DNA of 64,000 nt, taken from the NCBI GenBank assembly GCA_964563715.1, contig CAZLXA010000001.1:33613-97612 (forward strand), in the 5' to 3' direction. Made by a program: the position numbers and the translations under genes. The DNA is from an uncultured Candidatus Saccharibacteria bacterium (GTDB lineage Bacteria; Patescibacteriota; Minisyncoccia; Phycocordibacterales; UBA9973). This document shows, in pieces, positions 2,242 to 37,364 of the stretch (position 1 is its first letter; every line of letters starts with the position of its first letter). The notes beneath the pieces were generated by a model. It was given only the letters and a program-made list of their open reading frames with translations, was not told the DNA's origin and ran no database searches.

Positions 2242-2337
2242 CCCATTAAAAATTTTAACTTATAAATATATTAATTCAACCAATCTCTACCCATTTCTTT
2301 TAATGATTATATAAACTAATCAAAAATTTCTAACGGG
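2242..2337 (-). repeat. Palindromic start-abutting element, copy E (arms CCCGTTAGAAATTTTT / AAAATTTTTAATGGG, followed by the ATG of ruvX)
   Basis: Read on the minus strand, the left arm CCCGTTAGAAA (2327-2337) and the right arm TTTTTAATGGG sit immediately 5' of the ruvX ATG (2239-2241). Arm mismatches are G.U-compatible in this orientation. Confidence 0.5.
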
Positions 2338-2397
2338 ACAGGTATCTAAATATTACCATAATTGCCCTAAAAAGATATTATTGTTATAATTTAAAAT

Positions 2398-2625
2398 ATG
2401 GAAACATTTTTAAAAGATAATATATGGTTATTTATCATTTCAATGGTTTGGGTTTTACCTTGGAAAGGTTATGCCCTCTGGACAGCCTCACAGACTAGAA
2501 ACAAAAGATGGTTTATTGCTCTACTTATTATAAATTCTTTTGCTGTTCTTGATATTTTTTATATCTTTTACATCGCCAAGAAAACACCAGCAAATATAAA
2601 AGAGGCTTTTAAAGCAAAAATCTAA
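2398..2625 (+). CDS. Small membrane protein, hypothetical
   Basis: 75 aa with two predicted TM helices, followed by a rho-independent terminator at 2636-2662. Confidence 0.45.
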   Translation: METFLKDNIWLFIISMVWVLPWKGYALWTASQTRNKRWFIALLIINSFAVLDIFYIFYIAKKTPANIKEAFKAKI

Positions 2626-2635
2626 AACAAAATAA

Positions 2636-2662
2636 AAACAGACCCGTAAGGGTCTGTTTTTA
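2636..2662 (+). terminator. Rho-independent terminator
   Basis: Hairpin ACAGACCCG-TAA-GGGTCTGT followed by a T-run. Confidence 0.6.
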
Positions 2663-2712
2663 TTTTTGTATTCGGACTTGAAAAAAAGGTTAAAATGAAG
2701 TAATGTATACGC

Positions 2713-2798
2713 GGAGGCGTCGCATAGTTGGTCTAGTGCGCCCGTCTTGAAAACGGGTACGCCGCAAGGCGTCGTGAGTTCGAATCTCACCGCCTCCG
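2713..2798 (+). tRNA. tRNA-Ser (anticodon TGA), class II with a long variable arm
   Basis: Cloverleaf: acceptor GGAGGCG/CGCCTCC, anticodon stem-loop CCCGT-CTTGAAA-ACGGG, 16-nt variable arm, T-arm GTGAG-TTCGAAT-CTCAC, discriminator G. CCA is not encoded. Plausible promoter TTGAAA-17-TAATGT upstream and a terminator hairpin at 2806-2834. Confidence 0.85.
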
Positions 2799-2978
2799 CA
2801 AAAAAAGAAAACCCAAATAGGGTTTTTCTTTTTGCGGGCGAGCACGACAACTGCTTGTCGTACATGTGAGATTCGAAGAGCTTTTCATTAAGTATTTTTG
2901 TTTAGCAAAAATACTTTGAAAAGGTGTACTGAACCTGTAAGGTTCGAAACATGTACTCATGGTCCCACCGCCTCCGCA
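2799..2978 (+). repeat. tRNA-Ser-associated downstream segment ending in a direct repeat of the tRNA 3' terminus (CACCGCCTCCGCA at 2966-2978). It also contains an antisense copy of the T-arm.
   Basis: The 13-nt tRNA 3' end is repeated about 170 nt downstream. GTGAGATTCGAA at ~2870 is the reverse complement of the T-arm. No 5' half is present, so this is not a second tRNA. Confidence 0.55.
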
Positions 2979-3087
2979 TAGTAACTAATAATTTTTAAAA
3001 AACACCTCATTTTCTGTTTTAAGAAAAAACCATTCATAGTGCATAACTTTCTTGTTTTCTTTGTCACATTTACGGTAAAATATACTT

Positions 3088-3705
3088 ATGCTTGATAAAA
3101 TTTTACTAAATTGGCAACCCTATAAAATAACCGAAAATGATCTACCCGTGCTAATTACTTATGCTAAACATATGGGTGGTTCTCATTTATCAATTGTTTT
3201 AATTGCCGATTTATTTCTTAGAGGCTCAAAAATTATATTTCTAACCGCTTACCCAATGGCTAAAGATAATTTTTTAAATCAAGTTGGAATCAATAATCCA
3301 AATATTATTTTTGTGGATTCGGTAGAGGGCTTAGAAGAAGCCGCAAATACCCAAGCTATTATAATCGAAAGTGGTAATGCTACTTTATTTTTAAATGCAA
3401 TAAAAAATCTTCCTGATCTAAATGAACGAATCATCTTTATAAAAAATATTGAAATTTTTAGTGAAGAAGTATACGACGCTTGTATAAAATCAAAAAAATT
3501 AATTATCTCGGGTGACATTGATGAATGTGATTTCAAAGATAAAATTCCAAATCAACAATTCAAAACCATCATCGCTTTCAATCAAACCACGACTAAGATT
3601 AATATAGAAATTCCTAAATTAGAAAAATGGGATAGTTTCTTGTCGAGTGAAAATCAAAATGGAATTTTAACTCTAGAAAATAAAGATCATAAATTCACAC
3701 TCTAA
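3088..3705 (+). CDS. Hypothetical protein
   Basis: 205-aa ORF with no recognisable motif. Confidence 0.4.
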   Translation: MLDKILLNWQPYKITENDLPVLITYAKHMGGSHLSIVLIADLFLRGSKIIFLTAYPMAKDNFLNQVGINNPNIIFVDSVEGLEEAANTQAIIIESGNATLFLNAIKNLPDLNERIIFIKNIEIFSEEVYDACIKSKKLIISGDIDECDFKDKIPNQQFKTIIAFNQTTTKINIEIPKLEKWDSFLSSENQNGILTLENKDHKFTL

Positions 3706-3745
3706 AATTAGCAATTTATCTATAATTAATGCTAAAATGTAAATT

Positions 3746-4021
3746 ATGGAATCAATTTTAAAGTCGGATATATTTTTCTTTATTACTTCAATGTCAGTAG
3801 TAGTACTTACACTGTTTTTGTTAGTAGCTTTATTTTATTTTATTAAAATAATGCGTAATTTTTATAAAATATCAGAAATTTTAAAAAATTATACAGAAAA
3901 AACAGAAAATGACTTAAGGGATTTAGGCCAACATGTCCGACAAAGCAAATTGTTTACATTTCTTTTTGGTAAAGAGAAAGTTAAAAAGGAAACAGAAAGA
4001 TCAACAAAGAAATCGATATAA
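3746..4021 (+). CDS. Small membrane protein, hypothetical
   Basis: 91 aa, N-terminal TM helix, charged C-terminus. Confidence 0.4.
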   Translation: MESILKSDIFFFITSMSVVVLTLFLLVALFYFIKIMRNFYKISEILKNYTEKTENDLRDLGQHVRQSKLFTFLFGKEKVKKETERSTKKSI

Positions 4022-4100
4022 GTAGTTTATAAATTATTAATTAATATAAAAGCTCTACAAATTATATTTTGAAAATAATTCGTTTAGCTTTAAAAATACA

Positions 4101-4472
4101 ATGGTTAAAAAAATAGTAGCTAAAAAAGGTTTAGATGCAAAAACAATTATGGGAATTGGTGCAGGGGTAGCTGCGCTTTCTGCTGCTGCTTATGTCTTGT
4201 TTGGCCCAGAAGGTAAAAAGAATCGTAAAATTATTCGTGGCTGGTCAGTTAAAATGAAAGGTGAAATAATTGAAAAGTTTGAAAACGCTAAAGAATTAAC
4301 CGAACCAGTTTATCACAATATTGTTGATGGTATTCAAGCCAAATATGCTAAATTAAAAAACGTTGATCCTGAAGAGCTTCAAAATGTTGTAGCAGAAATT
4401 AAAAAACACTGGAAGGCCCTTCAAAAAGAAGCTGGGGTAAAGAAATCAAAAGTTGTAAAAAAGACTAAATAA
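4101..4472 (+). CDS. YtxH-like membrane protein (DUF948-like)
   Basis: IGAGVAALSAAAYVLFGPEGKKNRKII glycine-zipper helix followed by a coiled-coil tail; terminator at 4482-4505. Confidence 0.5.
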   Translation: MVKKIVAKKGLDAKTIMGIGAGVAALSAAAYVLFGPEGKKNRKIIRGWSVKMKGEIIEKFENAKELTEPVYHNIVDGIQAKYAKLKNVDPEELQNVVAEIKKHWKALQKEAGVKKSKVVKKTK

Positions 4473-4481
4473 TATAAAAAA

Positions 4482-4505
4482 TTCCTCCACTCGGAGGAAT
4501 TTTTT
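4482..4505 (+). terminator. Rho-independent terminator
   Basis: TTCCTCC-ACTC-GGAGGAA hairpin followed by TTTTTT. Confidence 0.65.
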
Positions 4506-4521
4506 ATGCTATGATGATTGG

Positions 4522-5667
4522 ATGGAAAATCTTTACGATCAATCAATAGAATTACACAAAAAGCACGGTGGTAAATTAGAAACAAACAGCAAGGTCCCCT
4601 TGTCAAATAAGGAAGATCTTTCTTTGGCTTATACTCCTGGTGTTGCTGGAGTTTGTTTAGCAATTGCCAAAGACGAAAAATTAGCAAAAGAATACACCCT
4701 CAAGAAAAATACGATTGCTATTGTGACTGACGGCTCGGCTATCTTGGGTCTTGGCAATTTGGGCCCCCTAGCCGCTATCCCGGTCATGGAAGGTAAAGCT
4801 GCGATATTTAAAGAATTCGGTGGTGTTGATGCTTTTCCAATTTGTTTAGATACAAATGATACAGAAGAAATAATAAAAATAGTAAAACAAATTGCTCCAG
4901 TTTTTGGTGGAATCAACTTAGAAGATATTTCGGCTCCTCGTTGTTTTATAATTGAAGAACGATTAAGAAAAGAATTAGATATCCCAGTCATGCACGATGA
5001 TCAATGGGGTGCAGCAACAGTCACTCTAGCCGCCCTTATTAATGCTCTTAAAATAGTCGGCCTTGATAAAACCAAAACAAAAGTTGTTATCTCCGGTGTT
5101 GGCTCGGCTGGAGTGGCCACTGGCCGATTACTTCATGAATATGGAATTACTAATACTATTTTTTGTGATAGTCATGGCATTATAAATTTAAATAGGAGTG
5201 ATTTAACAAAAGAAAAAATTGAATTATTAAATGGTAGTCAGCAAAAAGATTTAGAGGGAAATTTAGAAATTGCTATAAATCAAGCTGATGTTTTCATCGG
5301 TTTATCAAAACCAAATGTTTTAACATCCGCTATGGTTAAAAGTATGACTTCAAAACCAATCATTTTTGCTTTAGCCAATCCTAGCCCTGAAATTAGTCCC
5401 GAACTGGCAATGAGTTCTGGGGTTTACATTATGGCTACTGGTCGTTCTGATTATCCAAACCAGATAAATAATTCTTTGGTTTTCCCTGGGGCCTTTAAAG
5501 CTATGCTTGATCATCAAATTCCACAATTCGAAAATAAAATATTTCTTACTATCGCTGAAGCTCTGGCTAATATGATAGAAAAACCAACTCCCAAGAAGAT
5601 AATCCCAAGTATGTTTGATAAGGGTGTCATGGAAACAGTTTATAAGGCTGTATCTTCACTTAAATAA
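4522..5667 (+). CDS. NAD(P)-dependent malic enzyme (short form)
   Basis: 381 aa; LSLAYTPGVA malic-enzyme signature and Rossmann motif VISGVGSAGVATGRLL. Confidence 0.85.
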   Translation: MENLYDQSIELHKKHGGKLETNSKVPLSNKEDLSLAYTPGVAGVCLAIAKDEKLAKEYTLKKNTIAIVTDGSAILGLGNLGPLAAIPVMEGKAAIFKEFGGVDAFPICLDTNDTEEIIKIVKQIAPVFGGINLEDISAPRCFIIEERLRKELDIPVMHDDQWGAATVTLAALINALKIVGLDKTKTKVVISGVGSAGVATGRLLHEYGITNTIFCDSHGIINLNRSDLTKEKIELLNGSQQKDLEGNLEIAINQADVFIGLSKPNVLTSAMVKSMTSKPIIFALANPSPEISPELAMSSGVYIMATGRSDYPNQINNSLVFPGAFKAMLDHQIPQFENKIFLTIAEALANMIEKPTPKKIIPSMFDKGVMETVYKAVSSLK

Positions 5668-5709
5668 TTTTGCTAAAATTTTGTGGCGGGGTATAATATA
5701 AATATGGAT

Positions 5710-5827
5710 CCCGTTAGAAGTCATACATGTAATCCAAGATAATGGGAGGATATCAAGAAATTAGTTGTTTTTAAAATTATTAATTAATTTATGTACGAGA
5801 ATCTAAAGATTCTCTACTTCTAACGGG
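5710..5827 (+). repeat. Palindromic start-abutting element, copy A (CCCGTTAGAAGT ... ACTTCTAACGGG|ATG)
   Basis: Left arm at 5710-5721 and right arm at 5816-5827, with the ATG of ORF 5828 immediately following. AT-rich loop of ~95 nt. Confidence 0.55.
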
Positions 5828-6304
5828 ATGGATGAAATTAAATTAAATACTATCGAATGGTCAGTGCCAGAATATTCTCATAAAGAACGTGGAAATGATT
5901 GGTTCTGGACAATTGGACTTATTACTATTGTGGCTTGTGGTTTGGCTATTTGGTTACACAATTTTGTTTTTGCTATTTTTCTTTTAATATCTGGATGTTG
6001 TTTAATCATGTTTACATTACGACACCCACAAGAAGTAACATATAAAATAGAAACAAAAGGTTTATCAATGGGCAAAGATTTATATACTTGGAAGAGTTTG
6101 AAGAGTTTTAATATTAAAAATATTGAAACGGAATCTTATGCTAAATTAATGATAGAAACTAGTAAACACTTCCTCCCAGTCTACACAATTCCTGTTCCAA
6201 AAGATTTAGAAATGGAAATTAAACAAACTCTCCTTTTGGTTCTCCCTCGCTCAGAAATAGACGAATCAAAATCCATGGTCTTCATGGAAAAACTAGGATT
6301 CTAA
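5828..6304 (+). CDS. Membrane protein, hypothetical
   Basis: 158 aa, two TM helices; start codon directly abuts palindromic element copy A. Confidence 0.5.
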   Translation: MDEIKLNTIEWSVPEYSHKERGNDWFWTIGLITIVACGLAIWLHNFVFAIFLLISGCCLIMFTLRHPQEVTYKIETKGLSMGKDLYTWKSLKSFNIKNIETESYAKLMIETSKHFLPVYTIPVPKDLEMEIKQTLLLVLPRSEIDESKSMVFMEKLGF

Positions 6305-6313
6305 AAATTATAA

Positions 6314-6507
6314 TGTGATCCCGGCAGGATATCTTCCCCTACGAGGACAGTAGAAATAAACATTCTGTGACTACAAATAATTTCTCGCCGTCGCTCGAAA
6401 TTTTTGCAGTCCGCCCCTCGTGGTTTTGGTTGTTACCAAAACAACACTGCGGTCATCACAAAGCGAAAAAGACTGAAGAAGTTCAGTCTTTTTGAAATCG
6501 CGCTTTG
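6314..6507 (-). repeat. tRNA-Arg-associated downstream segment ending in a 15-nt direct repeat of the tRNA 3' terminus (CCTGCCGGGATCACA, minus sense). It carries the conserved block CTGTCCTCGTAGGGGAAGATATCC.
   Basis: Plus-strand TGTGATCCCGGCAGG occurs at both 6314-6328 and 6506-6520. The intervening ~175 nt is hairpin-rich, including a terminator-like stem that incorporates the tRNA 3' end. Confidence 0.6.
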
Positions 6508-6579: not shown

Positions 6580-6688
6580 ATATGGTTAAAATCTACACTA
6601 AATAGCTCTCAATCGCAAGTAAATCGTCTTTTAACTATTTATGCTATACTAGTTTTAGTCGAGTTTAATATATTAAAATAATTGTATT

Positions 6689-7347: not shown

Positions 7348-7349
7348 TT

Positions 7350-7604: not shown

Positions 7605-7863
7605 GGCTAATTTTTGAGGAGGAAACGACTACAAAAATAGCCATCCCGTCCTATAATTTTTGTTATATTAATAATTTTAAATTCAATAAATATTTCTCCG
7701 TATGTTTTCCGAAATACGGGGCCGAATAGGCCAATTCTTATCCCTATAGTATTTCGTCCTTCGTTTAAAATAAATTATAGGACTGGGATAATTTTCAAAT
7801 CTTGCCGAGACACCAGCAAAACTGAATATAGTGATATTAACAGAAAAAACTTGAATTGTACAC

Positions 7864-7933
7864 CCCCACACCTACTTTTTTGTAGTTTTCAACGTAGTCT
7901 TAAAGGACTACAACAAAAAAATAGGTGTGGGGG
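7864..7933. repeat. Long inverted repeat with CCCCCACACCTAC / GTAGGTGTGGGGG termini
   Basis: ~24-bp arms (CCCCCACACCTACTTTTTTGTAGT / ACTACAACAAAAAAATAGGTGTGGGGG) in the 390-bp non-coding rpsT-ruvA spacer. The same terminal motif recurs at 15708-16088. Confidence 0.5.
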
Positions 7934-7993
7934 TAAACCCCTAAGATTTTTTTGGTTATCTACAAATGCTTAAATATTTAGTATACTAGAAGT

Positions 7994-8616: not shown

Positions 8617-9567
8617 ATGCCTGAATTACCCGAAGTTACAACTACCGTTAATGGTTTACAAAAAGTCTTACCGGGACTTATTTTTTTAGATGTCTGGACT
8701 GATTTAAATAAAAAAAATCAAAACATCAAACAATTTAAAGAAACAATTAAAAACGATATCTTTTTTAAAGAATTTAAAAAGAAAATAATTGGACAAAAAG
8801 TTATTAAAGTTGAAAGACGAGCAAAAAATATATTAATAAATATCTCAGGTGGACACACAATTTTGATTCATTTAAAAATGACTGGGCACCTTCTTTTTGG
8901 TGAATACAAAAAAGTAGTAAATAATAAAGGGAAAGACGCAAGTAAAATACTTTGGGTGCCAAAAAATGACGGACCATTAAATGACCCCTATAACAGATTT
9001 ATACATGTTGTCTTTACCCTATCAAACAACAAACATTTAGCATTTTGTGATTCTCGTAAGTTTGGCAAGGTCACTATTATTCCTACAGACAAAAAAAATG
9101 AAACTGTTCATTTAAAAAACATCGGTCCGGAACCTCTTGAAAAAACTTTTAGTCAGAAAGAATTTATTAATCGTTTGTTTTTAAAACCTAATTGGAAAAT
9201 TAAAACAATTCTGATGGATCAATCCATCATCGCTGGTATTGGTAATATTTATTCGGATGAAATGCTTTGGGCTTCAAACATACACCCTGAATCAAACCCT
9301 CATAAAATTCCAAAAACCCAATTATCAAAACTTTATTTCGAGATGAAAAAAGTTTTGACTAAAGGTATCGATTTTGGTGGTGATTCTATGTCAGACTATC
9401 GAAATACCGAAGGATTACGAGGTGATTTTCAAAATGAACATAATGTTTATCAGAAAAAAGGCCACAAGTGTGGTAAAAAGGGTTGCAGAGGTGTTATAAT
9501 AAGAAAGGTTATAAATGGTCGCAGTGCCCATTTTTGTAACACTCATCAAAAAATATTTTCGAATTGA
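8617..9567 (+). CDS. mutM: Formamidopyrimidine-DNA glycosylase (Fpg/MutM)
   Basis: MPELPEV N-terminus with catalytic Pro2-Glu3, a H2TH region, and a C-terminal zinc finger CGKKGCRG...HFCNTH. Confidence 0.85.
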   Translation: MPELPEVTTTVNGLQKVLPGLIFLDVWTDLNKKNQNIKQFKETIKNDIFFKEFKKKIIGQKVIKVERRAKNILINISGGHTILIHLKMTGHLLFGEYKKVVNNKGKDASKILWVPKNDGPLNDPYNRFIHVVFTLSNNKHLAFCDSRKFGKVTIIPTDKKNETVHLKNIGPEPLEKTFSQKEFINRLFLKPNWKIKTILMDQSIIAGIGNIYSDEMLWASNIHPESNPHKIPKTQLSKLYFEMKKVLTKGIDFGGDSMSDYRNTEGLRGDFQNEHNVYQKKGHKCGKKGCRGVIIRKVINGRSAHFCNTHQKIFSN

Positions 9568-9574
9568 TACTCGT

Positions 9575-9684
9575 CCCGTTAGAAGTCGTGATTATCGGGA
9601 AAGTAAATAATTTATTATTAAAAATAAGTACAGTGGCTCGATTTTATTAATTAATATTAATAATCACGACCTACTTCTAATGGG
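9575..9684 (+). repeat. Palindromic start-abutting element, copy B (CCCGTTAGAAGTCGTGATT ... AATCACGACCTACTTCTAATGGG|ATG)
   Basis: 19-nt arms with one G.U-compatible mismatch; the ATG of ORF 9685 directly follows GGG. Confidence 0.55.
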
Positions 9685-9897
9685 ATGGCAGAAAAACCAA
9701 AAGAAAAAAAGAAAAAACATAATGGTGGAGAAATGCATTTCGGACTTGAAGTCCTTTTATTTGTTGTGGCGATTTTTATTCTCTGGATTTTAATGGGTGG
9801 AGCAAAAAAGAAAGTTGAGGATAAACCTTTCATTACTCCCCTAACCGATCAAGTAAATCCTGGAATGAAATATGGACCAAATTCTGATAGAAATTAA
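9685..9897 (+). CDS. Small membrane protein, hypothetical
   Basis: 70 aa, Lys-rich N-terminus, one TM helix; start abuts palindromic element copy B. Confidence 0.45.
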   Translation: MAEKPKEKKKKHNGGEMHFGLEVLLFVVAIFILWILMGGAKKKVEDKPFITPLTDQVNPGMKYGPNSDRN

Positions 9898-13032: not shown

Positions 13033-13106
13033 TGCGCCCGTAGCTCAGTTGGTAGAGCAGCTCCCTTTTAAGGAGATGGTCGTAGGTTCGATTCCTACCG
13101 GGCGCA
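13033..13106 (+). tRNA. tRNA-Lys (anticodon TTT)
   Basis: GCGCCCG-TA-GCTC-AGTTGGTA-GAGC-A-GCTCC-CTTTTAA-GGAGA-TGGTC-GTAGG-TTCGATT-CCTAC-CGGGCGC-A. Confidence 0.85.
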
Positions 13107-13271
13107 CACTTATAAAAACCTTAAGAAATTAAGGTTTTTATAAGTGTGCGCCCAAGCAAGCAAACTGCTTTGCTTGCGTGTAGGAATCGAAAGGCTTTTG
13201 TGTCTTTTTAAAAATTCATTTTAAAAAAGTACAAAAGGCATACTGTCCTCGTAGAGGAAGATATCCTACCG
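13107..13271 (+). repeat. tRNA-Lys-associated downstream segment. Contains a terminator hairpin that incorporates the tRNA 3' end, antisense copies of the tRNA T-arm and acceptor, and the conserved block CTGTCCTCGTAGAGGAAGATATCCTACCG (13243-13271).
   Basis: AAGTGTGCGCCC and GTAGGAATCGAA are reverse complements of the tRNA 3' end and T-arm. The final CCTACCG repeats the tRNA T-stem/acceptor junction. The block is about 90% identical to the one after tRNA-Arg. Confidence 0.55.
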
Positions 13272-28038: not shown

Positions 28039-29034
28039 ATGTCAAGCCCAAATAAAACAATTAAAGACGAGGGGTTTTTAGACCAAACTCTAAGACCAGA
28101 GGTCTGGTCAGAGTATATTGGCCAAGAAAATATTAAAGCAAATCTAAAAATTCTTCTAACCGCCGCCGAAGAACGATCTCACCCGGCTGAACATATTCTT
28201 TTTTATGGTCCACCAGGACTCGGCAAAACAACACTTGCTCATTTGATTGCCAAAGAAACTAGGCGCCAAATAAAAATTACTTCCGGACCAGCAATTGAAA
28301 AAGTTGGAGACCTTGCTTCGATTCTAACTAATCTTGCTCCAGGTGATATTGTTTTCATTGATGAAATTCATCGCTTAAATAAAATGGTGGAAGAAATTTT
28401 ATATCCAGCTATGGAATCTGGTGTTCTTGATATTATTATTGGTAAAGGCCCATCAGCGAGAACGATTCAACTTGAGCTGCCACCTTTTACTTTGATTGCG
28501 GCAACAACTCGAATTGCACTCCTTTCCTCTCCCCTTCGTTCCCGATTCTCAGGTGGAGTTTTTCGTTTAGAATTTTATAGTCATGATGAAATTAAAAAAA
28601 TTCTTTCTCGTTCAGCTAAAATTTTAGGCGTAGAATTAGATAATGAAGCACTCGATGAAATATCCAAAAGAGCTCGTTTTACTCCTCGAACAGCCAATTA
28701 TTTTTTGAAACGCTGTCGTGATTACGCCCAAGTAAACAAAACCCCTCTATCAAAAGAGTCAGTCAAAAAAGCTTTAGCTTTACTTGAAATCGACGAGCTT
28801 GGTTTATCATCATCAGACAGAAGAATTTTAGATATTATTATTTCAAAATTCGGTGGTGGCCCTGTTGGTTTAAAAACCATAGCGGCTGCTACAAGTGAAG
28901 AAGAAGCCACAATTGAAGAAGTGGTTGAACCATATTTAATTCAACTTGGTTTACTTGACCGTACCACTAGAGGACGCGTTGTAACAAAAAAGGGTTATGA
29001 GCATTTGGGGTATGATAAAATAATTACGAATTAA
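28039..29034 (+). CDS. ruvB: Holliday junction DNA helicase RuvB
   Basis: RPEVWSEYIGQE, Walker A GPPGLGKTTLA, Walker B VFIDEIHRL, sensor LIAATTR. Confidence 0.9.
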   Translation: MSSPNKTIKDEGFLDQTLRPEVWSEYIGQENIKANLKILLTAAEERSHPAEHILFYGPPGLGKTTLAHLIAKETRRQIKITSGPAIEKVGDLASILTNLAPGDIVFIDEIHRLNKMVEEILYPAMESGVLDIIIGKGPSARTIQLELPPFTLIAATTRIALLSSPLRSRFSGGVFRLEFYSHDEIKKILSRSAKILGVELDNEALDEISKRARFTPRTANYFLKRCRDYAQVNKTPLSKESVKKALALLEIDELGLSSSDRRILDIIISKFGGGPVGLKTIAAATSEEEATIEEVVEPYLIQLGLLDRTTRGRVVTKKGYEHLGYDKIITN

Positions 29035-29052
29035 TAATTACGAATTACGAAT
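29022..29052. repeat. AATTACGAATT-type repeat spanning the ruvB stop and the ruvC start
   Basis: ATTACGAATTAATAATTACGAATTACGAATG; the TAA stop of ruvB and the ATG of ruvC are embedded in the motif. Confidence 0.6.
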
Positions 29053-31067: not shown

Positions 31068-33578
31068 ATGTGTTATTATATATGTATGCGAAAACTAAAA
31101 AAACCTTCATTAAAGAACCTTATTTTAATAATTATCGGCCTTGGCCTTTTATTTACTAGTCTAATAGTCATTTGGATTAGTACTTTACGACTACCTGACT
31201 TTAAGTCATTTACTGACCGTAAAATACAGAGTTCGACTAAAATATACGACCGAACCGGTGAGATTCTCCTTTACGATGTTCATGCTGATATAAAAAGAAC
31301 AATTATTCCTTATGAAGAAATAGGAACAAATATTTTAAATGCCACTGTGGCTATTGAAGATTCAGAATTTTATCAACACCATGGTATTAGACTTAAATCA
31401 ATCATCCGAGCTACTTTTTGGGCAAAATTAACTGGTAAAAAATTGCAGGGTGGTTCAACTATTACTCAACAATTAATTAAAAATACTCTTCTGACGCCTG
31501 AGGTTTCTATTTCGCGTAAAATGAAAGAGTGGATATTGGCAGTCAAACTTGAAAAAATTATGAGTAAAGATGATATTTTGGCTCTTTATTTAAATGAGGC
31601 TCCTTATGGAGGAAATATTTATGGAGTTGAAGAAGCCAGTAAAGCTTTCTTTGGTAAAAAACCAAAAGATGCGACTCTAGCCGAAGCCGCTTACCTTGCT
31701 TCTATTCCTAATGGTCCAACATACTATTCTCCTTATCGAAAAAATAAAGATAAATTGGATGAAAGAAAAAATATTGTCTTAAAGAGAATGCTTGATTTAG
31801 GATTTATCACTGAGAGCGAACACTTAAAAGCAAAAAGTGAAGTGGTGGCCTTTTTACCCGAACAACCAATGCATATAGCGGCTCCTCATTTTGTTTTTTT
31901 TATAAAAGAATATTTAGAAAATCGTTATGGAGCTGATACTCTTGAGGGTGGGGGTCTAAAAATAATTACAACTCTCGATTACGAATTACAAAAAAAGGCG
32001 GAGGAAATAACTTTAAAAAATGCTCTTGAAAATGAAAAAAGTTGGAATGGTAAAAATGCTTCTGTCGTAGTCCTTGATCCCAAAAATGGTCAAATCTTAT
32101 CAATGGTTGGATCCCGAGATTATTTTGATAAAACGATAGATGGAAATTTCAATGTTGCGACGGCTGGACGACAGCCAGGGTCTTCTTTCAAGCCAATAGT
32201 GTATGCTCTTGCTTTCGAAAAAGGTTATACTGAAAAAACTGTTTTATTTGATGTAAAAACTGAATTTAACGCTTCTTGTAATCCAAACGGTCTTTCAAAC
32301 GATAGTAAATGCTATAGTCCAGATAATTATGATAATGCTTTCAGGGGGCCACTATCACTTCGTGATGGGCTCGCACAATCTATAAACATCATAGCGGTTA
32401 AACTTTTGTATTTAGTTGGTATTTCCGATTCGATTAAAATGGCAAGGAACTTGGGAATCACAACTCTTTTAAATGACCCAAATCGTTATGGGTTGACTCT
32501 AGTAATCGGAGGAGGAGAAACAACTTTACTTGATATGACTTCTGTTTATGGAGTCTTTGCTAATCGTGGGATAAGAAATCAATATACTGGCATATTGTCG
32601 GTTGAAGATGGAGTTGGAAATATTCTTGAAAAATTTGAAGAGGCTCCTCAACAAATTCTAAAACCAAATACGACAAATATTCTTTCTAGTATTTTATCTG
32701 ACAATGAGGCTCGAACCCCAACTTTTGGGGCCAACTCCGTGCTTAAAATACCTGGCCGGGAGGTAGCAGTAAAAACTGGTACCACAAACAACAATAAAGA
32801 TGCTTGGACGATTGGATATACGCCCTCTATAGCAGTGGGGGTCTGGGTTGGGAACAATGATAACATTCCGATGAAAAAAGGTGGGGCGGCGCTTGCTGGG
32901 CCCATTTGGAACGGGGTTATGACTGAAGCACTAAAGACAACACCTGCTGAATTTTTTGAAAAACCCGAACCTATCGACGAAACTCTTCCTCCACTTATTC
33001 GTGGACTCTGGCAAGGTGGAGAAACTTTTAGTATTGATACCGTCTCAGGAGGGTTAGCCACTGAATTTACTCCTTCTGAATTAAAAAAAGAAATATCAAT
33101 TACCAATGTTCACTCGATTTTATACTGGATTGATAAAAATAATCCATTAACACTAAAAACAACAAACTCAAATAGTGACTCACAATTTGAAAATTGGGAA
33201 TATGGAGTAAAAAAATGGTGGGAAGCCAATAAATATAAATACCCAATTATAACTTCGGCTAATAAACCAAGTTATTATGATAATGTTCATACTGAATCAT
33301 CAAAGCCAGTTTTTAATATTACTGGTATGAAAAATACGCCTTATCAAAAAAATGAAAACATAACTATTCTAATTAATCCAACAAGTCAAAATGTTATTAA
33401 AAAAATAGATGTTTTTATTAACAGTAAATACATAACCTCTTTAAAGACTTATCCATTTTCTACTTCTATCAGTTTAAAAAATGTTGAGGATTTGAATAGT
33501 GAAAATATTATAAGAATTATTGGAACCGATGTTTGGGGAAATATTGGTGAACAAACAATTCCTTTTAGTACTATTTAA
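31068..33578 (+). CDS. Class A penicillin-binding protein (PBP1A: glycosyltransferase plus transpeptidase)
   Basis: N-terminal TM; GT51 motifs EDSEFYQHHG and GGSTITQQL; transpeptidase motifs SSFKP (SxxK), SND and KTGTT; ~150-aa C-terminal extension. Confidence 0.9.
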   Translation: MCYYICMRKLKKPSLKNLILIIIGLGLLFTSLIVIWISTLRLPDFKSFTDRKIQSSTKIYDRTGEILLYDVHADIKRTIIPYEEIGTNILNATVAIEDSEFYQHHGIRLKSIIRATFWAKLTGKKLQGGSTITQQLIKNTLLTPEVSISRKMKEWILAVKLEKIMSKDDILALYLNEAPYGGNIYGVEEASKAFFGKKPKDATLAEAAYLASIPNGPTYYSPYRKNKDKLDERKNIVLKRMLDLGFITESEHLKAKSEVVAFLPEQPMHIAAPHFVFFIKEYLENRYGADTLEGGGLKIITTLDYELQKKAEEITLKNALENEKSWNGKNASVVVLDPKNGQILSMVGSRDYFDKTIDGNFNVATAGRQPGSSFKPIVYALAFEKGYTEKTVLFDVKTEFNASCNPNGLSNDSKCYSPDNYDNAFRGPLSLRDGLAQSINIIAVKLLYLVGISDSIKMARNLGITTLLNDPNRYGLTLVIGGGETTLLDMTSVYGVFANRGIRNQYTGILSVEDGVGNILEKFEEAPQQILKPNTTNILSSILSDNEARTPTFGANSVLKIPGREVAVKTGTTNNNKDAWTIGYTPSIAVGVWVGNNDNIPMKKGGAALAGPIWNGVMTEALKTTPAEFFEKPEPIDETLPPLIRGLWQGGETFSIDTVSGGLATEFTPSELKKEISITNVHSILYWIDKNNPLTLKTTNSNSDSQFENWEYGVKKWWEANKYKYPIITSANKPSYYDNVHTESSKPVFNITGMKNTPYQKNENITILINPTSQNVIKKIDVFINSKYITSLKTYPFSTSISLKNVEDLNSENIIRIIGTDVWGNIGEQTIPFSTI

Positions 33579-33834
33579 TATCTAAAAAAATATTGTCGGG
33601 AGAAATAATTTTTAATTTATTTAAAATATTGTTTTTGTGCATCATAATCTCGCTACGAAACATTGGAGACCCGGATATATATATAATACCGTTTTTTATT
33701 TTTATTGAATCTTTCGCAACTGGATGATGAATTTCACCGGAAATTATTTCTACAATAATTTCTTTTATTACTTCTTTTTGATAAATTAATTTTTTAAATT
33801 TATCTAGAAAATTTGTAATATGATTATAATCCAT
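33571..33834 (-). CDS. DUF721-like small protein downstream of dnaN
   Basis: 87-aa ORF placed immediately after dnaN in the dnaA-dnaN operon. Confidence 0.4.
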   Translation of the reverse strand: MDYNHITNFLDKFKKLIYQKEVIKEIIVEIISGEIHHPVAKDSIKIKNGIIYISGSPMFRSEIMMHKNNILNKLKIISPDNIFLDIK

Positions 33835-33850
33835 GTTTTTTTGAATTATA

Positions 33851-33887
33851 ATTATTAATTCGTAATTATTAATTCGTAATTATTTTT
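33851..33887. repeat. AATTCGTAATT-type repeat at the dnaN stop
   Basis: ATTATTAATTCGTAATTATTAATTCGTAATTATTTTT. Confidence 0.6.
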
Positions 33888-34983
33888 ACCTATTCATTGG
33901 CATGACCAAATACATAAAAGATGAGTCTCCAATTCCTTTTATAATCATTGGCCGGTTGTTGCCATTTAACTCAATACTTAAACTATCACCAGAAATAGAC
34001 TGAAAACAATCTAAAATATATTTATAATTAAAATTTGCAGAAACTGGTTCTCCAGATAAAGCGCCCGAAATAAGGGTAGTATTCTCTCCAATATCTGTAT
34101 TTTTTGATTCTATTTCGAATATTTTTTCATTAGGTTTAACAGTCAAAACCACTTGATTAAACTTATCAGAAAAAATATTTGAAATTTTCAGAGATGAAAT
34201 AAAATCTTGTTTTAAAACAACAGATTTTGTTGTTGGGTTTTTAGGAATAATTTGTTTGTAGTCAGGGAAACTCCCGTCTACAACCCTTGAAGTTAAATAA
34301 ATATTTGAAGCAGTAAATGATATTTGGTTTTTTTGAAGAGTAATATTAACGTCGTCATCAAAACCATCAAACACTTTAATTATCTCAACAACATTTTTAA
34401 AGGGAATTAATATTCCGCCAAAAGATAATTTTTGTTTTATTTTTATTTTTTTCTCAGCTAATCTGAAAGAGTCGGTTGAAACAAAAACCAACATATCGTC
34501 TTCTGGGTAAATATATACGCTTCCGATTTCAGGTTTTATTTCCGAAACAGAAGCACTATAATAAACCGATTTAACCCCTTCAATAAATTTTTTACTAGAA
34601 ATAAGTAATGTCTCCCCTTCAACAATTGGGATAGTTGGAAAATCTTCATGAGAAATACTTTTTAATAAAATAGTACTTGTATTTGTTTTAACCAATAAAT
34701 TACCATTAATCAACTCAAATTTAACCAATAAGTCTCCTTGTAAAACAGAAAACAAAGAGGATAAAATATCACCTCTCACGGCCACCACCCCTTCTTTCTC
34801 GATTTTTGCTGGTATTTCTATTTCAATACCAATATTTAAATTAGTGGCCCTTAGTTTCAATGATTTACCTGTTGCTACCCACAAAACCGAACCTAAAACA
34901 GGTAATGTTAAATTCTTTCCAGTTATCCTTTCGACTGATTGGAGTGCTTTTTTTATTTTATCGATTGAACATTCTATTTTCAT
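33886..34983 (-). CDS. dnaN: DNA polymerase III beta sliding clamp
   Basis: 365 aa in three-domain clamp architecture, positioned immediately downstream of dnaA. Confidence 0.85.
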   Translation of the reverse strand: MKIECSIDKIKKALQSVERITGKNLTLPVLGSVLWVATGKSLKLRATNLNIGIEIEIPAKIEKEGVVAVRGDILSSLFSVLQGDLLVKFELINGNLLVKTNTSTILLKSISHEDFPTIPIVEGETLLISSKKFIEGVKSVYYSASVSEIKPEIGSVYIYPEDDMLVFVSTDSFRLAEKKIKIKQKLSFGGILIPFKNVVEIIKVFDGFDDDVNITLQKNQISFTASNIYLTSRVVDGSFPDYKQIIPKNPTTKSVVLKQDFISSLKISNIFSDKFNQVVLTVKPNEKIFEIESKNTDIGENTTLISGALSGEPVSANFNYKYILDCFQSISGDSLSIELNGNNRPMIIKGIGDSSFMYLVMPMNR

Positions 34984-35190
34984 ATATGTTATTAATTATC
35001 TTATAAATACTTATTACTACTATTAGACCTGTTAATATGTGGATTACGATATGACTCAATTAAACTAACGACATTTTTATTTTTATTTTTTAAAAATTTT
35101 ATTTATTTTGTGAATTACTTTTAATTTTTTAATAAATGATTATTTTTCCACATTTATTATTTTTATAAACATAACTTTTCCACAGGTTTA
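34984..35190. promoter_or_regulatory. Candidate oriC segment (dnaA-dnaN spacer) with DnaA-box-like 9-mers and an AT-rich unwinding stretch
   Basis: TGTGGATTA at 35038-35046; TTTTCCACA at 35144-35152 and 35176-35184 (TTATCCACA consensus, 1 mismatch each); A/T tract at 35080-35140. Confidence 0.55.
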
Positions 35191-36555
35191 TTATTTAAAC
35201 ATAATTCTAATTTTTTCTATCTCTTGTAAAAGTGAAGGGTCTGTCTTTAAATCACTTTTAATTTTTAAATGAGAGTGAATGACGGTCGTATGGTCTCTAT
35301 CCCCCAGTTTTTGTCCTATTAGTGGATAAGAAATATTAAAATCTTCACGGAGTAAATACATTGCTACCTGACGAGCCTTAACTATTTCTTTTCTTCTGGT
35401 TTTCTCATAAATTACTTCTTCAGCTAGGCCGTATTGATCTGCGACAATTTTAACAATATCCTTAATTGCCACGGTCTTTTTTGGTCTAATATTATTTCTA
35501 ATTAGGGTTTTTATTTCAGCCAGGGTTAATGATTTGTTTTTTAGTTGAGATTGGCAAATAACAGTATTTAGACTACCCTCAAGTTCACGGATGTTCCCTT
35601 CTAGTGATTCAGCTAGATAAGAAACTATCTCTGGTTCAATAATACAATTTGTTGATTCAAACTTAGCTTTAATAATTGCGACCCGAGACTCATAATCTGG
35701 TTCAATAATTTGAACTGTCATCCCAGAGGCAAAACGAGACTGGAGTCTGTCTTCTAAGCCTTGAATAAAGTTTGGGTGTTTATCGGAAGAGAAAATTATT
35801 TGTTTGTTATTTTCATACAAAGTATTAAATAAATGGAATAATTCTTCTTGTGTTTTATCTTTACCGGAAATAAATTGGATATCATCCATTATGATTACAT
35901 CGTATTTTCTATATTTTTCCTTGAAAGCATTAGGGTTTTTATTTTGGATTGAATTAATATAATCAATTGTAAATCTTTCCAAGCTAACATAATAAACTTT
36001 TTTTAGTGGGTGTTTTATTTTTATAGTATTGCCTATGGCTTGGATCATGTGGGTCTTCCCTAGCCCTGTTCCCCCGTAGACAAAAAATGGATTATAGTTT
36101 TGACCGGGGTTAGTGATGATGGCTTGGGCAACAGCGTAAGCAAGTTCGTTAAAAGGCCCAACAATAAATGAATTAAAGTTATATTTTGGGTTTAAATTAT
36201 CATCTTTATTTATATATAAATCGTTTAACGGTAATTCTTTGTTGATATTAACCACAGTTTTTGGTATAGCGTTTTCATTGCCCTTATTATTTGAATCGTT
36301 TTTTAGTTCTTGTTTATGAATAATGTATTCAACATTACGAACACTTTCTTCATTTCCAATTAAAGTTTTTAGAATTAGTTTATGAAATTTATTATAAAGC
36401 CAGTCTTTGACAAATTCATTTGGAACGCCAACAATAATAATTCCAGCGTCTTCCTTTATTATGGTGGTGTTTTTAAACCAAGTAGTAAAATTAGCCTTTG
36501 AAATGCTTAGTTCGATTTCCGATAAACACTTGCTCCAGAGCTCTTTTGTATTCAT
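35191..36555 (-). CDS. dnaA: Chromosomal replication initiator DnaA
   Basis: AAA+ core with Walker A GGTGLGKTH, Walker B IIMDDIQF and sensor motifs; C-terminal DNA-binding domain VKARQVAMYLLRE. Confidence 0.9.
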   Translation of the reverse strand: MNTKELWSKCLSEIELSISKANFTTWFKNTTIIKEDAGIIIVGVPNEFVKDWLYNKFHKLILKTLIGNEESVRNVEYIIHKQELKNDSNNKGNENAIPKTVVNINKELPLNDLYINKDDNLNPKYNFNSFIVGPFNELAYAVAQAIITNPGQNYNPFFVYGGTGLGKTHMIQAIGNTIKIKHPLKKVYYVSLERFTIDYINSIQNKNPNAFKEKYRKYDVIIMDDIQFISGKDKTQEELFHLFNTLYENNKQIIFSSDKHPNFIQGLEDRLQSRFASGMTVQIIEPDYESRVAIIKAKFESTNCIIEPEIVSYLAESLEGNIRELEGSLNTVICQSQLKNKSLTLAEIKTLIRNNIRPKKTVAIKDIVKIVADQYGLAEEVIYEKTRRKEIVKARQVAMYLLREDFNISYPLIGQKLGDRDHTTVIHSHLKIKSDLKTDPSLLQEIEKIRIMFK

Positions 36556-36672
36556 CCCGTTTAGAAGCAGGTTGCGGTCAATTTTGTGATTAACCTAAAC
36601 TACTTTTATTAATATAAATAATAACTTTTTATAAAAATCCTGTTAATTTTCGCGACCGCGGCTTCTAACGGG
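36556..36672 (-). repeat. Palindromic start-abutting element, copy D, in the dnaA-rpmH spacer. On the minus strand it reads CCCGTTAGAAG ... CTTCTAAACGGG|ATG(dnaA).
   Basis: Arms at 36662-36672 and 36556-36567; the dnaA start codon (rc of 36553-36555) directly follows. A DnaA-box-like TGTGGATAT lies at 36746-36754. Confidence 0.55.
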
Positions 36673-36804
36673 ATTCATAGTCGTTATTATACATTGTTTT
36701 TTAAAACTGCCACAATGAAATATCTTAATTAACATGTTAATATCGTGTGGATATGTTTATTACTTACCGTTGCATTTTTGTCAATTATAGTATATATTTT
36801 CAAT

Positions 36805-36945
36805 ATGTCTCAAACATATCAACCCAACAAAAGAAAAAGAGCCAAAACACACGGCTTCCTTGTCAGAACCAAAACACAAAATGGTAGAAAGGTAAATACT
36901 GCTCGCCGCCGAAAGGGCCGAGCAAATGTCTCAATTAAAAAATAA
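36805..36945 (+). CDS. rpmH: 50S ribosomal protein L34
   Basis: [46 protein letters not shown]. The track ORF 36745-36945 includes this; true start at ATG 36805. Confidence 0.9.
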
Positions 36946-36946
36946 C

Positions 36947-37279
36947 ATGATCCCAAAGAAAAAGCGGGTGACAAAAAAAGTCTTTGATATCCTAATGAAG
37001 GAAGGAAAAACTTTTTCCACCGGGCTTTTTTTATTTTACTTTAAAAAAGGCGAAATAGCTCAATATACTTTTGTTGCTCCCAAAAAAGCCTTTAAAAACG
37101 CGGTATTAAGAAATAAATATCGGAGGATTGGCTACAATATCTTAAGAAAAAAGCCCCTAAATAAAGGCATTGGGATTTTTATCTATAAAAAACAAGCCTT
37201 AAATGCTAAAAACGAAGAAATCGAGCAAAATATTGACTATTTATTAAAAAAAATGGCTTTATATTATAAAACGTTGTAA
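36947..37279 (+). CDS. rnpA: Ribonuclease P protein component
   Basis: Basic 111 aa (MIPKKKRVTKKVFDILMKEGK...) directly after rpmH. The track ORF starts at 36926 and overlaps rpmH; ATG 36947 is preferred. Confidence 0.7.
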   Translation: MIPKKKRVTKKVFDILMKEGKTFSTGLFLFYFKKGEIAQYTFVAPKKAFKNAVLRNKYRRIGYNILRKKPLNKGIGIFIYKKQALNAKNEEIEQNIDYLLKKMALYYKTL

Positions 37280-37288
37280 AATACTTGT

Positions 37289-37364
37289 CCCGTTAGAAGA
37301 CTAAAGCTTTATTTATTATTAGTTAAAATAAGTATAAATTTCAAGATTTAATACTTCTAACGGG
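37289..37364 (+). repeat. Palindromic start-abutting element, copy C (CCCGTTAGAAG ... CTTCTAACGGG|ATG of yidD)
   Basis: Arms at 37289-37299 and 37354-37364; ATG at 37365. Confidence 0.55.

Follow-up and report, generated by a model that had tools for sequence, protein, structure and literature searches.

Palindromes abutting start codons in a Patescibacteria genome are probably copies of a mobile MITE-like element

Results

The five palindromes that run up to start codons in the 64,000-nucleotide stretch of DNA analysed here (the window) are, with high probability, copies of a non-autonomous, MITE-like mobile palindromic element, and the host, of Paceibacterota/Nomurabacteria type, belongs to the Candidate Phyla Radiation (CPR, Patescibacteria). 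The comparisons below demonstrate insertion, target duplication, a chimeric start codon, a wide distribution and in-frame copies elsewhere, and an RNA-level effect following insertion is possible. All five palindromes, of the form (C/T)CCCGTTAGAAG…CTTCTAACGGG(A/G), were found at the sites of the original prediction (Table 1); each runs up to an ATG, and the genes on that side are ruvX, two unnamed ORFs, dnaA and yidD, as had been proposed. The borders had been drawn one base short at either end. A further pair joins the base preceding CCC to the one following GGG, and the palindrome therefore takes in the A of the ATG. Mismatches of the G.U type, formerly assigned to copies B and E, actually lie in A (two) and C (one), whereas the arms of B pair perfectly and in E a single A/A non-pair stands at arm position 12. 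In the window, the 12-mer with at most two mismatches was observed 9 times (3.1 expected) and CTTCTAACGGGATG with at most two mismatches 7 times (0.19 expected), counts of 9 and 7 being reached in none of 100 shuffles each. A scan of all long-ORF starts in the window found this to be the only hairpin family that ends at a start codon. The interior of copy B carries a 3' sub-hairpin, GAGAATCTAAAGATTCTC, common to three other loci (L022, L027, L167), the inner stem of copy C is about 10 bp longer, and copy D belongs to the subfamily GCCGCGGTCGC…GACCGCAACCTGC. The five window copies have no interior sequence in common, so the host genome has undergone no recent burst, which counts against the mobile-element reading.

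Table 1. Coordinates of the five palindromic copies and their associated features in the window
Feature	Coordinates	Strand	Description
Copy A, class 2	2241..2338 (palindrome as predicted 2242-2337)	-	includes the terminal T..A pair; abuts ruvX ATG 2241-2239
Copy A arms	proximal 2242-2253; distal 2326-2337	-	proximal arm degenerate, ATTTTTAATGGG on the gene strand
Copy A distal flank	2338..2355	-	ACCTGT at 2343-2338, in the place expected for the duplicated target
Copy A -10-like box	2355-2350	-	TAATAT, 6 nt upstream of ACCTGT
Copy B, class 1	5709..5828 (palindrome as predicted 5710-5827)	+	arms 5710-5721 and 5816-5827, perfect 12 bp
Copy B terminal A	5828	+	first base of ORF 5828-6304
Copy B native promoter and distal duplicate	5670..5708	+	TTGCTA 5670-5675, 16 nt, TATAAT 5692-5697, 6 nt, distal ATG 5704-5706
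Copy B target duplication	5705-5708 and 5829-5832	+	TGGA, 4 bp
Copy C, class 2	9574..9685 (palindrome as predicted 9575-9684)	+	arms 9575-9586 and 9673-9684, one G.U (ACTTCTAATGGG)
Copy C distal flank	9569-9574	+	ACTCGT, 1 nt past the stop of ORF 8617-9567
Copy C downstream gene	ATG 9685	+	70-aa ORF abutted
Copy D, class 1	36555..36673 (palindrome as predicted 36556-36672)	-	abuts dnaA ATG 36555-36553
Copy D arms	proximal 36556-36568; distal 36661-36672	-	1-nt bulge in the proximal arm
Copy D native dnaA promoter and distal duplicate	36674..36713	-	TATAAT 36691-36686, 7 nt upstream of distal ATG 36678-36676
Copy D -35-like element	starts 36713	-	GTGGCA
Copy D target duplication	36674-36677 and 36551-36554	-	TGAA (TTCA on the plus strand)
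Copy E, class 2	37288..37365 (palindrome as predicted 37289-37364)	+	arms 37289-37300 and 37353-37364; abuts yidD ATG 37365
Copy E distal flank	37283-37288	+	ACTTGT, 3 nt past the rnpA stop (37277-37279)

The element has the consensus Y-CCCGTTAGA(A/G)… variable interior …(T/C)TCTAACGGG-R and a size of 28-132 nt, and its arms, 11-14 bp long, are separated by a few nt to about 110 nt. Arm positions 1-9 (CCCGTTAGA) are more than 95% invariant, positions 10-11 vary jointly on both sides, and the inner stems vary among copies yet remain complementary inside each copy; minimal hairpin-only copies of 28-38 nt are present. A variant with three mismatched arm positions is carried unchanged at two sites in one genome and again in another genome (L129, L121). 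The terminal bases, before CCC and after GGG, are complementary in 141 of 149 copies (T..A in 77, C..G in 64). The target duplication is 4 bp with the consensus T-N-N-A/G: left and right flank 6-mers were identical at a mean of 4.0 of 6 positions, as compared with 2.5 for shuffled pairs (maximum 2.8 in 1000 shuffles), and the match rates by position were 0.61, 0.96, 0.97, 0.98, 0.94 and 0.57. The class-2 sublineage, which includes window copies A, C and E and accounts for 11 of the 69 start-abutting copies, has the distal flank RCYTGY and no target duplication. The empty ruvX sites of relatives read TAATAT-N6-ATG, so the CCTG in the flank of copy A is not native target sequence. The RCYTGY flank is not accounted for by a simple insertion model. 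The family thus has the features of MITEs, namely terminal inverted repeats, target duplication (class 2 excepted), small non-coding sequences dispersed in many copies, and presence/absence polymorphism. Fetched loci totalling about 1.5 Mb contained neither a parent transposase nor an autonomous element bounded by the same arms, which also counts against a mobile element; IS1380-type ends (CC…, with a 4-5-bp duplication) are a possible lead to the parent element.

Occupied and empty orthologous sites were compared. At dnaA the window has TATAAT-N7-ATGAAT[element]ATGAATACA. In L120, which is the closest relative and has 91% DnaA identity, as in most others, the sequence is TATAAT-N6-8-ATGAATACA. 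No element stands at this site in L120, L122-L126 and others of the closest relatives, whereas L127, L166, L170, L175 and L190 carry one and variant-arm copies also occupy it. Of 78 related dnaA loci, about 16 have an element at this position, and the subfamilies differ. At ruvX, two related loci are occupied (L200, L204) and two are empty (L201, L203), and the yidD site is empty in most relatives. The empty dnaA, ruvX and yidD sites of close relatives have a TATAAT box 6-8 nt before the ATG. Among the copies, -10-like boxes likewise peak 6-8 nt upstream of the distal 6-mer, and the best promoter matches for the window copies lie in the flanks, where they precede the distal duplicated ATG (B, D) or the distal ACCTGT (A) by 6-7 nt. 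The original suggestion of a promoter-carrying mobile element that donates the start context is therefore upheld for mobility and start context, by the empty sites, the 4-bp duplication and the terminal A/G, and not for the promoter. The insertion point falls at +2 to +5 of the predicted transcript.

In the host, Shine-Dalgarno sites are nearly absent and many genes begin 6-8 nt downstream of a TATAAT box. Promoters of the leaderless type, with a -10-like box 6-10 nt before the ATG, precede 19 of the 56 long window ORFs, and GC skew tracks the coding strand. The arms indeed lack a Shine-Dalgarno sequence, as had been pointed out, but this is not distinctive, because even a weak match (AGGA) occurs in only 2 of those 56 ORFs.

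Arms with the identical 10 nt were found both in viral contigs (11) and in genomes, where at least 117 loci carry them; these genomes come from many Patescibacteria lineages and also from Planctomycetota, Omnitrophota, Deltaproteobacteria and other groups. Local density is high, with five copies in the 64-kb window and up to 3 copies in 7 kb (L166, L048). About half of the copies in other genomes touch no start codon, and in Planctomycetota and Deltaproteobacteria copies also occur in non-promoter DNA. Of about 13-15 real copies at Paceibacterota loci that were collected by protein homology, 12 directly adjoin a start codon. This share, together with the occupation of one dnaA position by differing subfamilies in close relatives, exceeds what a loose 4-bp target alone predicts. 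The abutted proteins are unrelated (66 proteins fell into 63 clusters) and share no gene family or pathway.

Seven copies in other genomes lie in frame within conserved genes, including rsmH, xth, secA and rfbB; all seven are of a length divisible by 3 and lack a stop codon, and against the solved structures of RsmH (1m6y) and ExoIII (2voa) they appear as clean insertions. None of the five window copies lies within a gene. A conserved, inverted 9-10-bp half-site would also suit the binding of a dimeric protein to paired sites with looping of about 100 bp of DNA, as originally considered. Beyond this nothing was found in favour of such a factor, for which a protein with specific CCCGTTAGAA binding and a regulatory effect would be needed, and the variable arm spacing, the copies inside genes, the identity of the site in unrelated phyla, and the target duplications and empty sites, which point to insertion, make it extremely improbable.

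Discussion

The mobile-element reading offers a mechanism for the position of the start codons. The target, surviving or preferred, is ORF positions 2-5 (A followed by TGNA), and insertion yields promoter-A-TGNA-[Y…R]-TGNA-rest of gene, so that, for example, A-TGAA becomes A-TGAA-[T…A]-TGAA. What then serves as start codon beside the 3' arm is the last base of the element (A, or G, which gives GTG) together with the duplicated TG. The ATG always stands directly after GGG because this last base and the duplicated TG rebuild the start codon, and cases of the type ATGAAC-[…]-GTGAAx occur because the terminal pair may be C..G with a duplicated target. The promoter positions predict that the left arm is co-transcribed, and transcription from the old promoter would include the element as a hairpin leader at the 5' end. 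The rebuilt AUG would probably be translated by Shine-Dalgarno-independent initiation, as for operon-internal genes of the host. Expression may be aided by RNase III-type trimming of the hairpin, as with Correia elements, or an internal (C/T)GGG(A/G/T) decoy may pair with the 5' arm and release the 3' arm. The concentration at start codons may be partly survivorship, because in very compact genomes whose promoters abut the ATG few positions would spare both promoter and ORF, and partly, perhaps, true targeting.

Could the palindrome instead be a cis-regulatory leader RNA of the host, a long helix with the start codon at its base, conserved because it controls translation? The gene-strand folds are stable (z-scores -2.7 to -5.7) and better than those of the opposite strand for A (-25 versus -8.7 kcal/mol) and C (-37.1 versus -28.4), the distal YTGT of class 2 can be paired by hand with AUGR via wobble pairs, there is an orientation bias, and between the window and L127 the arms and subfamily stems are conserved while the loops have diverged. 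However, the abutted genes are unrelated housekeeping genes, the sites are empty in close relatives, and copies lie off start codons and inside coding sequences, some of them translated in frame; on these grounds translational control, as originally envisaged, is not supported as the nature of the element. The argument that G.U pairing indicates an RNA helix proved weak: on the sense strand 11 G.U pairs stand against 5 A.C mismatches, an excess that is not significant, and one sublineage supplies 7 of the 11. The persistence of the variant with three arm mismatches also speaks against a conserved helix; arm positions 1-9, being invariant, give no evidence of covariation, and the double-sided changes at positions 10-11 and in the inner stems are equally expected of the inverted repeats of a mobile element. 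Rfam at gathering thresholds matched only tRNAs and not the element, and E-value scans gave only generic hairpins (miRNA precursors, and idnO with 24-27 bits where the threshold is 100). We therefore regard a host leader RNA as very unlikely.

The orientation of the interior relative to the gene is nearly fixed, at about 48 to 2 (30-31 to 1-2; 15 to 0; 3 to 0), and such a bias is not expected from symmetric ends and cut-and-paste movement without selection or a strand-specific step. One explanation is a strand-specific hairpin element that moves via single-stranded DNA or RNA, by a HUH/RAYT-like or other enzyme, and enters DNA opened by RNA polymerase at the starts of leaderless genes; integration there would account for both the start-site hot spot and the fixed orientation. 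Besides the bias itself, the common orientation of all four informative in-gene copies, the differing subfamilies at one dnaA position, the complementary inner stems, the hairpin-only copies and the insertion at +2 to +5 are consistent with it. Against it, known single-strand transposons (IS200/IS605, REP/RAYT) have neither target duplication nor symmetric ends, whereas a clear and variable 4-bp duplication is seen here, and the copies in genes and in non-promoter DNA indicate that a promoter is not required; we consider this route unlikely. It is likewise fairly unlikely that such a strand-specific hairpin element homes to the first bases of leaderless genes, giving them a structured leader and a rebuilt start codon, rather than being merely tolerated there. 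Homing would proceed via promoter DNA melted by RNA polymerase or via an RNA or single-stranded intermediate, the hairpin would set the 5' end beside the rebuilt AUG, and translation would follow by shunt, by re-initiation or after processing, with the orientation bias and the AUG-pairing class-2 flank as signs of an RNA-level function. If true, bacteria would have an equivalent of start-site-targeted integration and of hairpin-mediated ribosome shunting.

As a mobile element, the family resembles the Correia/NEMIS MITEs of Neisseria, which are also short and non-coding, with terminal inverted repeats, target duplication and many dispersed copies, and which often lie directly upstream of genes and are co-transcribed as hairpins (co-transcription is predicted here). 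Correia elements duplicate TA and, to our knowledge, are described in Neisseria only, whereas the present element has a 4-bp duplication (T-N-N-A/G), a promoter in the flank, a last base that rebuilds the start codon, the same ends across several phyla and a biased interior orientation. Integron attC sites are also imperfect palindromes; their size is similar, their centre varies and their conserved ends contain GTT. Their consensus begins with RYYYAAC (5') and ends with GTTRRRY (3'). An attC identity was rejected, since by this consensus the motif order is reversed here (GTTAGAA first, TTCTAAC last), the loci are housekeeping genes and not cassette arrays, and target duplications are present. 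REP/REPIN sequences with RAYT and IS200/IS605-derived elements are also hairpin-forming repeats, and strand and orientation specificity is typical of their mechanism; these systems are not known to make a target duplication, and they are recognised through sub-terminal hairpins and a fixed flanking tetranucleotide. Identity with them was rejected because of the variable 4-bp duplication and the true palindrome of the ends. In Neisseria, RNase III cuts Correia hairpins at the inverted repeats and expression is altered, and the Correia elements have their own promoters and an IHF site (review, PMC10969869). Rickettsia palindromic elements (RPE) are palindromic repeats that stand in frame in protein-coding genes unrelated to one another, where their translation adds peptide segments (PMC10969869). 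By description, the in-frame copies reported here are similar, but RPE are about 150 bp long and known from Rickettsia genomes, and in the present family, whose host belongs to Patescibacteria, in-gene copies are the minority and the start codon of leaderless genes dominates in Patescibacteria.

A striking pattern is thus given a simple mechanical cause, in which the first base of start codons, that of dnaA included, comes from a mobile hairpin in an organism that translates without Shine-Dalgarno sites. The compact genomes of Patescibacteria, usually held to be poor in mobile DNA, bear tiny elements of this family at high density, with about one per 13 kb in the window, and the ends of these elements are common to copies in Planctomycetota, Omnitrophota, Deltaproteobacteria and viral contigs. 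For annotation, start codons and N-termini beside the arms should be treated as chimeric, and the element can create GTG starts. The in-gene copies show that proteins tolerate insertions of 20-40 residues, and the occupied sites may serve as natural experiments on how a leaderless gene copes with an added structured leader of 100 nt.

Start-codon palindromes in the window

According to the original prediction, the right arm of each of five palindromes directly abuts a start codon. All five were located by pattern searches and by reading the sequence, and in each of them one arm stops exactly at the start codon. The arms are CCCGTTAGAAGT and ACTTCTAACGGG and lie far above chance, the 14-mer including the ATG being found seven times in the window with at most two mismatches, against 0.19 expected. 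None of the long-ORF starts in the window carried another hairpin family ending at the start codon.

Palindromic and repeat features in the window
Feature	Position	Strand	Neighbouring gene
Copy A	2242-2337	minus	abuts ruvX
Copy B	5710-5827		abuts ORF starting at 5828
Copy C	9575-9684		abuts ORF starting at 9685
Copy D	36556-36672	minus	abuts dnaA
Copy E	37289-37364		abuts yidD
TTACGAATTACGAATTA repeats	29024-29047		
TTACGAATTACGAATTA repeats	33856-33879		
TTACGAATTACGAATTA repeats	38846-38952		
TTACGAATTACGAATTA repeats	45638-45788		
TTACGAATTACGAATTA repeats	46219-46235		
TTACGAATTACGAATTA repeats	46611-46634		
TTACGAATTACGAATTA repeats	50560-50569		
ACCCCCACACCTA…TAGGTGTGGGGGT	7838-7958		
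GGGCGCACACTTATAAAAACCTTAA inverted repeat	13100-13153		begins inside the 3' end of tRNA-Lys (13034-13107)

All five copies fold as RNA into a long hairpin (z-scores from -2.7 to -5.7); for A and C, G.U pairs make the gene-strand fold clearly the better one. The G.U mismatches had been assigned to B and E but belong to A and C: the arms of B pair perfectly, those of E contain one non-pair and those of D a 1-nt bulge.

Three other kinds of repeat were observed. Exact 10-mer matches to repeats with 7-nt units (TTACGAATTACGAATTA) number 19, where 0.3 would be expected; all are intergenic, often as inverted pairs, and two directly abut the ATG of an ORF, at 29051 (plus) and 46607 (minus). The ACCCCCACACCTA…TAGGTGTGGGGGT palindrome, the longest inverted repeat in the window, also lies upstream of dnaA in three loci from other genomes (L135, L139 and L191), just upstream of the DnaA-box region, and is probably another small mobile element. 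The GGGCGCACACTTATAAAAACCTTAA inverted repeat pairs 25 nt perfectly with its complement.

Empty and occupied sites

The metagenome scan with the window DnaA returned 80 related loci with 63-91% identity. In the closest relatives the dnaA site reads TATAAT-N6-8-ATGAATACA and the element is absent; in the window it reads TATAAT-N7-ATGAAT-element-ATGAATACA. Of 78 loci, about 16 are filled at exactly this position; their distribution is patchy, and the position appears to be a hot spot, as different subfamilies hold it in close relatives. Occupants with canonical arms have two kinds of interior, and others carry variant arms such as CCCGATAGAAAT…ATTTCACACGGG, CCCGTACGAAGT…ACTTCATACGGG and CCCGAACGAAAT…ATTTCGTACGGG. 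The yidD site has no element in most relatives, and the ruvX site is empty in L201 and L203 (TAATAT-N6-ATG) and filled in L200 and L204.

Two further arrangements were seen at these genes. In four loci (L144, L145, L146 and L152) the TATAAT box and the ATG of dnaA are separated by a leader of about 95 nt, AT-rich and with no recognisable arms, which may be a decayed element remnant at the same site. In L166 (2203-2279, minus) an element lies in the rnpA-yidD junction with TTTA duplicated. Translation from an ATG in its loop would be in the frame of yidD and yield MKNNIKYILTSNG-IKLINFYQK…; yidD may have gained its start codon and an N-terminal extension by recruitment of this element.

Target duplication and the chimeric start codon

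The six bases to the left and right of the arms matched at 4.0 positions on average, compared with 2.5 for shuffled pairs and at most 2.8 in 1000 shuffles; the match rates by position were 0.61, 0.96, 0.97, 0.98, 0.94 and 0.57. In 141 of 149 copies the bases directly outside the arms, ahead of CCC and behind GGG, form a pair (T..A in 77, C..G in 64). The element is therefore Y-CCCG…CGGG-R and the target duplication is 4 bp with the consensus T-N-N-A/G; duplications of 6 bp or 5 bp were discarded in favour of 4 bp plus a terminal pair after counting by position. Copies B and D show the duplication directly, as TGGA at 5705-5708 and 5829-5832 and as TGAA (gene strand) at 36674-36677 and 36551-36554.

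Insertion at A/TGAA/x thus gives A-TGAA-(T…A)-TGAA-x, and the start codon at the arm consists of the element's last base and the duplicated TG, while the distal ATG is the original A followed by the other target copy. Elements ending C..G make the start GTG, so the recurrent ATGAAC…GTGAAx flanks need no selection.

Class 2, a sublineage in which RCYTGY replaces the distal duplicate, makes up 11 of the 69 start-abutting copies, including A, C and E. Its RCYTGY forms are ACTTGT, ACCTGT, ACTCGT and GCTTGC, often together with TAATGGG in the proximal arm (the arm at the gene start). The empty ruvX sites show that CCTG is not native there, and an apparently orthologous dnaN pair has ATGAAT in L166 versus ACATGT in L167. 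That the distal duplicate mutated convergently into ACYTGT was judged implausible, since ruvX would need changes at all four positions beside conserved neighbouring bases. The class-2 YTGT can be proposed to pair with AUGR through wobble pairs, or can be read as a putative three-codon frame, NTG-TCC-CGT-TAG, ending in the arm.

Distribution across genomes and genes

The element consensus is Y-CCCGTTAGA…TCTAACGGG-R. Scanning species-representative genomes with CCCGTTAGAA-(41-101 nt)-TTCTAAYGGG found at least 117 loci with the element. The matches listed include Patescibacteria (Nomura-, Saccharibacteria, Kerfeld-, Doudna-, Kaiserbacteria, Paceibacterota and others) as well as Planctomycetota/Pirellulales, Omnitrophota, Deltaproteobacteria, Edwardsbacteria and Stahlbacteria. 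The element also occurs on 11 IMG/VR contigs classified as viral (L205-L215), with 37-62% GC, several of which share one copy with arms CCCGTTAGAACG…; these could be a route of spread between phyla or else mis-binned host DNA. The shortest versions, 28-38 nt, are little beyond the arms.

Of the 135 elements among the matches listed, 64 touch, on one side only, the start codon of an ORF with 50 codons or more, one does so on both sides and 70 on neither; by record title, about 34 of 60 Patescibacteria copies abut starts versus 2 of 18 copies from other phyla. Where loci had been retrieved by protein homology and not by the element, a start codon is touched by 12 of about 13-15 real copies. The genes next to the arms encode housekeeping proteins unrelated to one another, such as DnaA, AtpD, TopA, ribosomal proteins, tRNA synthetases, RuvC, Smc and Efp.

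Nested and tandem copies, one inserted beside or into another, were seen in L078 (a 2.4-kb Syntrophobacter contig) and at L037 7674-7895. At L023 2167-5033 (also in L016, L050 and L111) two inverted copies lie within a larger inverted duplication, which flanks a gene for a 686-aa secreted-looking protein and has near-identical copies on other contigs of related genome bins.

Copies inside genes

When the flanks were joined in silico, seven copies proved to lie inside conserved genes, namely rsmH, secA, a GT2-like glycosyltransferase, a response regulator, xth, a polyprenyl synthase and rfbB. All seven have a length that is a multiple of three and contain no stop codon, and the arms translate as PVR(S/N/K)…(S/T)SNG in one open frame and as PLE…FLTG in the other. 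The rsmH and xth segments are clean insertions without counterpart in the solved structures (1m6y, 2voa) and are therefore translated, not spliced or bypassed. A self-cleaving ribozyme, an intron or a translational bypass was rejected because all the in-gene copies, open and in frame, are read through, and also because the interior has no conserved core.

Discussion

Our results show a mobile palindromic element that duplicates 4 bp of its target, forms a chimeric start codon and is tolerated in frame within genes. The original prediction had offered a mobile element donating the start context as one reading, and the patchy empty and filled sites, the duplication and the chimeric codon bear it out. 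A dedicated translational leader, which it had also considered, is not supported, given the unrelated abutted genes, the many copies away from starts and the copies inside genes.

The homologues of RuvX place the relatives in Candidatus Paceibacterota, Pacebacteria or Nomurabacteria. Even a weak AGGA precedes no more than 2 of the 56 long ORFs in the window, and in 19 of the 56 a TATAAT-like box ends 6-10 nt before the ATG, which points to a leaderless, Shine-Dalgarno-independent host. The earlier remark that the arms lack a Shine-Dalgarno sequence is true but, in such a host, says nothing. The -10-like boxes of the 69 start-abutting copies lie most often 6-8 nt upstream of the distal 6-mer, which is also where the best promoter matches of B and D sit, so both arms are predicted to be co-transcribed from the old promoter. 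No promoter was predicted in the loop of B, and an AT-rich candidate in the D loop (36646-36618) was no better than background. A distal-ATG reading frame coupled to the real start through the right-arm TAA was rejected because the distal frame of B and D stops early inside the element.

Whether the RNA helix itself is selected was judged from the arms. Positions 1-9 are uninformative because they are more than 95% invariant; changes at positions 10-11 and in the inner stems occur on both sides at once, which is also the behaviour of mobile-element inverted repeats. The G.U asymmetry once taken to argue for an RNA-level helix is not significant (11 G.U versus 5 A.C mismatches on the sense strand, 7 of the 11 from the class-2 lineage), and a variant with three mismatched arm positions that propagated unchanged (twice in L129, and in L121) speaks against the helix being under strict selection.

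In spite of the symmetry of the arms, the interior modules nearly always point in one direction with respect to the gene. The internal (C/T)GGG(A/G/T) lies near the distal arm in 30-31 copies versus 1-2 reversed, the GCCGCGGTCGC…ACCTGC subfamily is oriented 15 to 0 and the AATCTAAAGATT hairpin subfamily 3 to 0, and the four informative in-gene copies all have the same orientation. Such fixed orientation calls either for selection acting on the transcript or for integration by a strand-specific step. Together with the class-2 flanks, the missing parent transposase, the different subfamilies at one dnaA position and the high share of start-abutting copies in loci retrieved by protein homology, it fits poorly with plain insertion of a mobile element.

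Clustering at start codons can be explained by survivorship: where the promoter abuts the ATG, insertion at +2..+5 with a terminal purine rebuilding RTG preserves both promoter and ORF, whereas insertion at neighbouring positions destroys one or the other. After insertion the transcript would carry a 5' hairpin leader, and the rebuilt AUG would be used through Shine-Dalgarno-independent initiation, as for operon-internal genes. Trimming by an RNase III-type enzyme would plausibly help; RNase III processing of hairpins is documented for Correia elements (PMC10969869). The internal (C/T)GGG(A/G/T), sometimes a full CTAACGGG, could also help by pairing with the distal arm and leaving the proximal arm and AUG open.

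The family has the defining features of a prokaryotic miniature inverted-repeat transposable element except an identified parent. No parent transposase was found in the examined loci of other genomes, and their unpaired arms yielded only chance 10-mers or truncated copies when a full-length parent was sought. Motif order and target duplication rule out integron attC sites and IS200/IS605 or REP-type elements. By analogy, the family appears to resemble Correia elements in its co-transcribed hairpins next to genes, and Rickettsia palindromic elements in its in-frame insertion into genes, a behaviour described for the latter (PMC10969869), but belongs to neither. Rfam scans at gathering thresholds (whole window) and by E-value (B, D and E) returned only tRNAs and generic hairpin matches, and searches of the literature with the arm sequence and keywords gave only unrelated primer matches and no description of the family. 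What is new is a 4-bp duplication that, together with a terminal purine, rebuilds the start codon of leaderless genes, the identical ends across several phyla and viral contigs, and the orientation bias of the interior.
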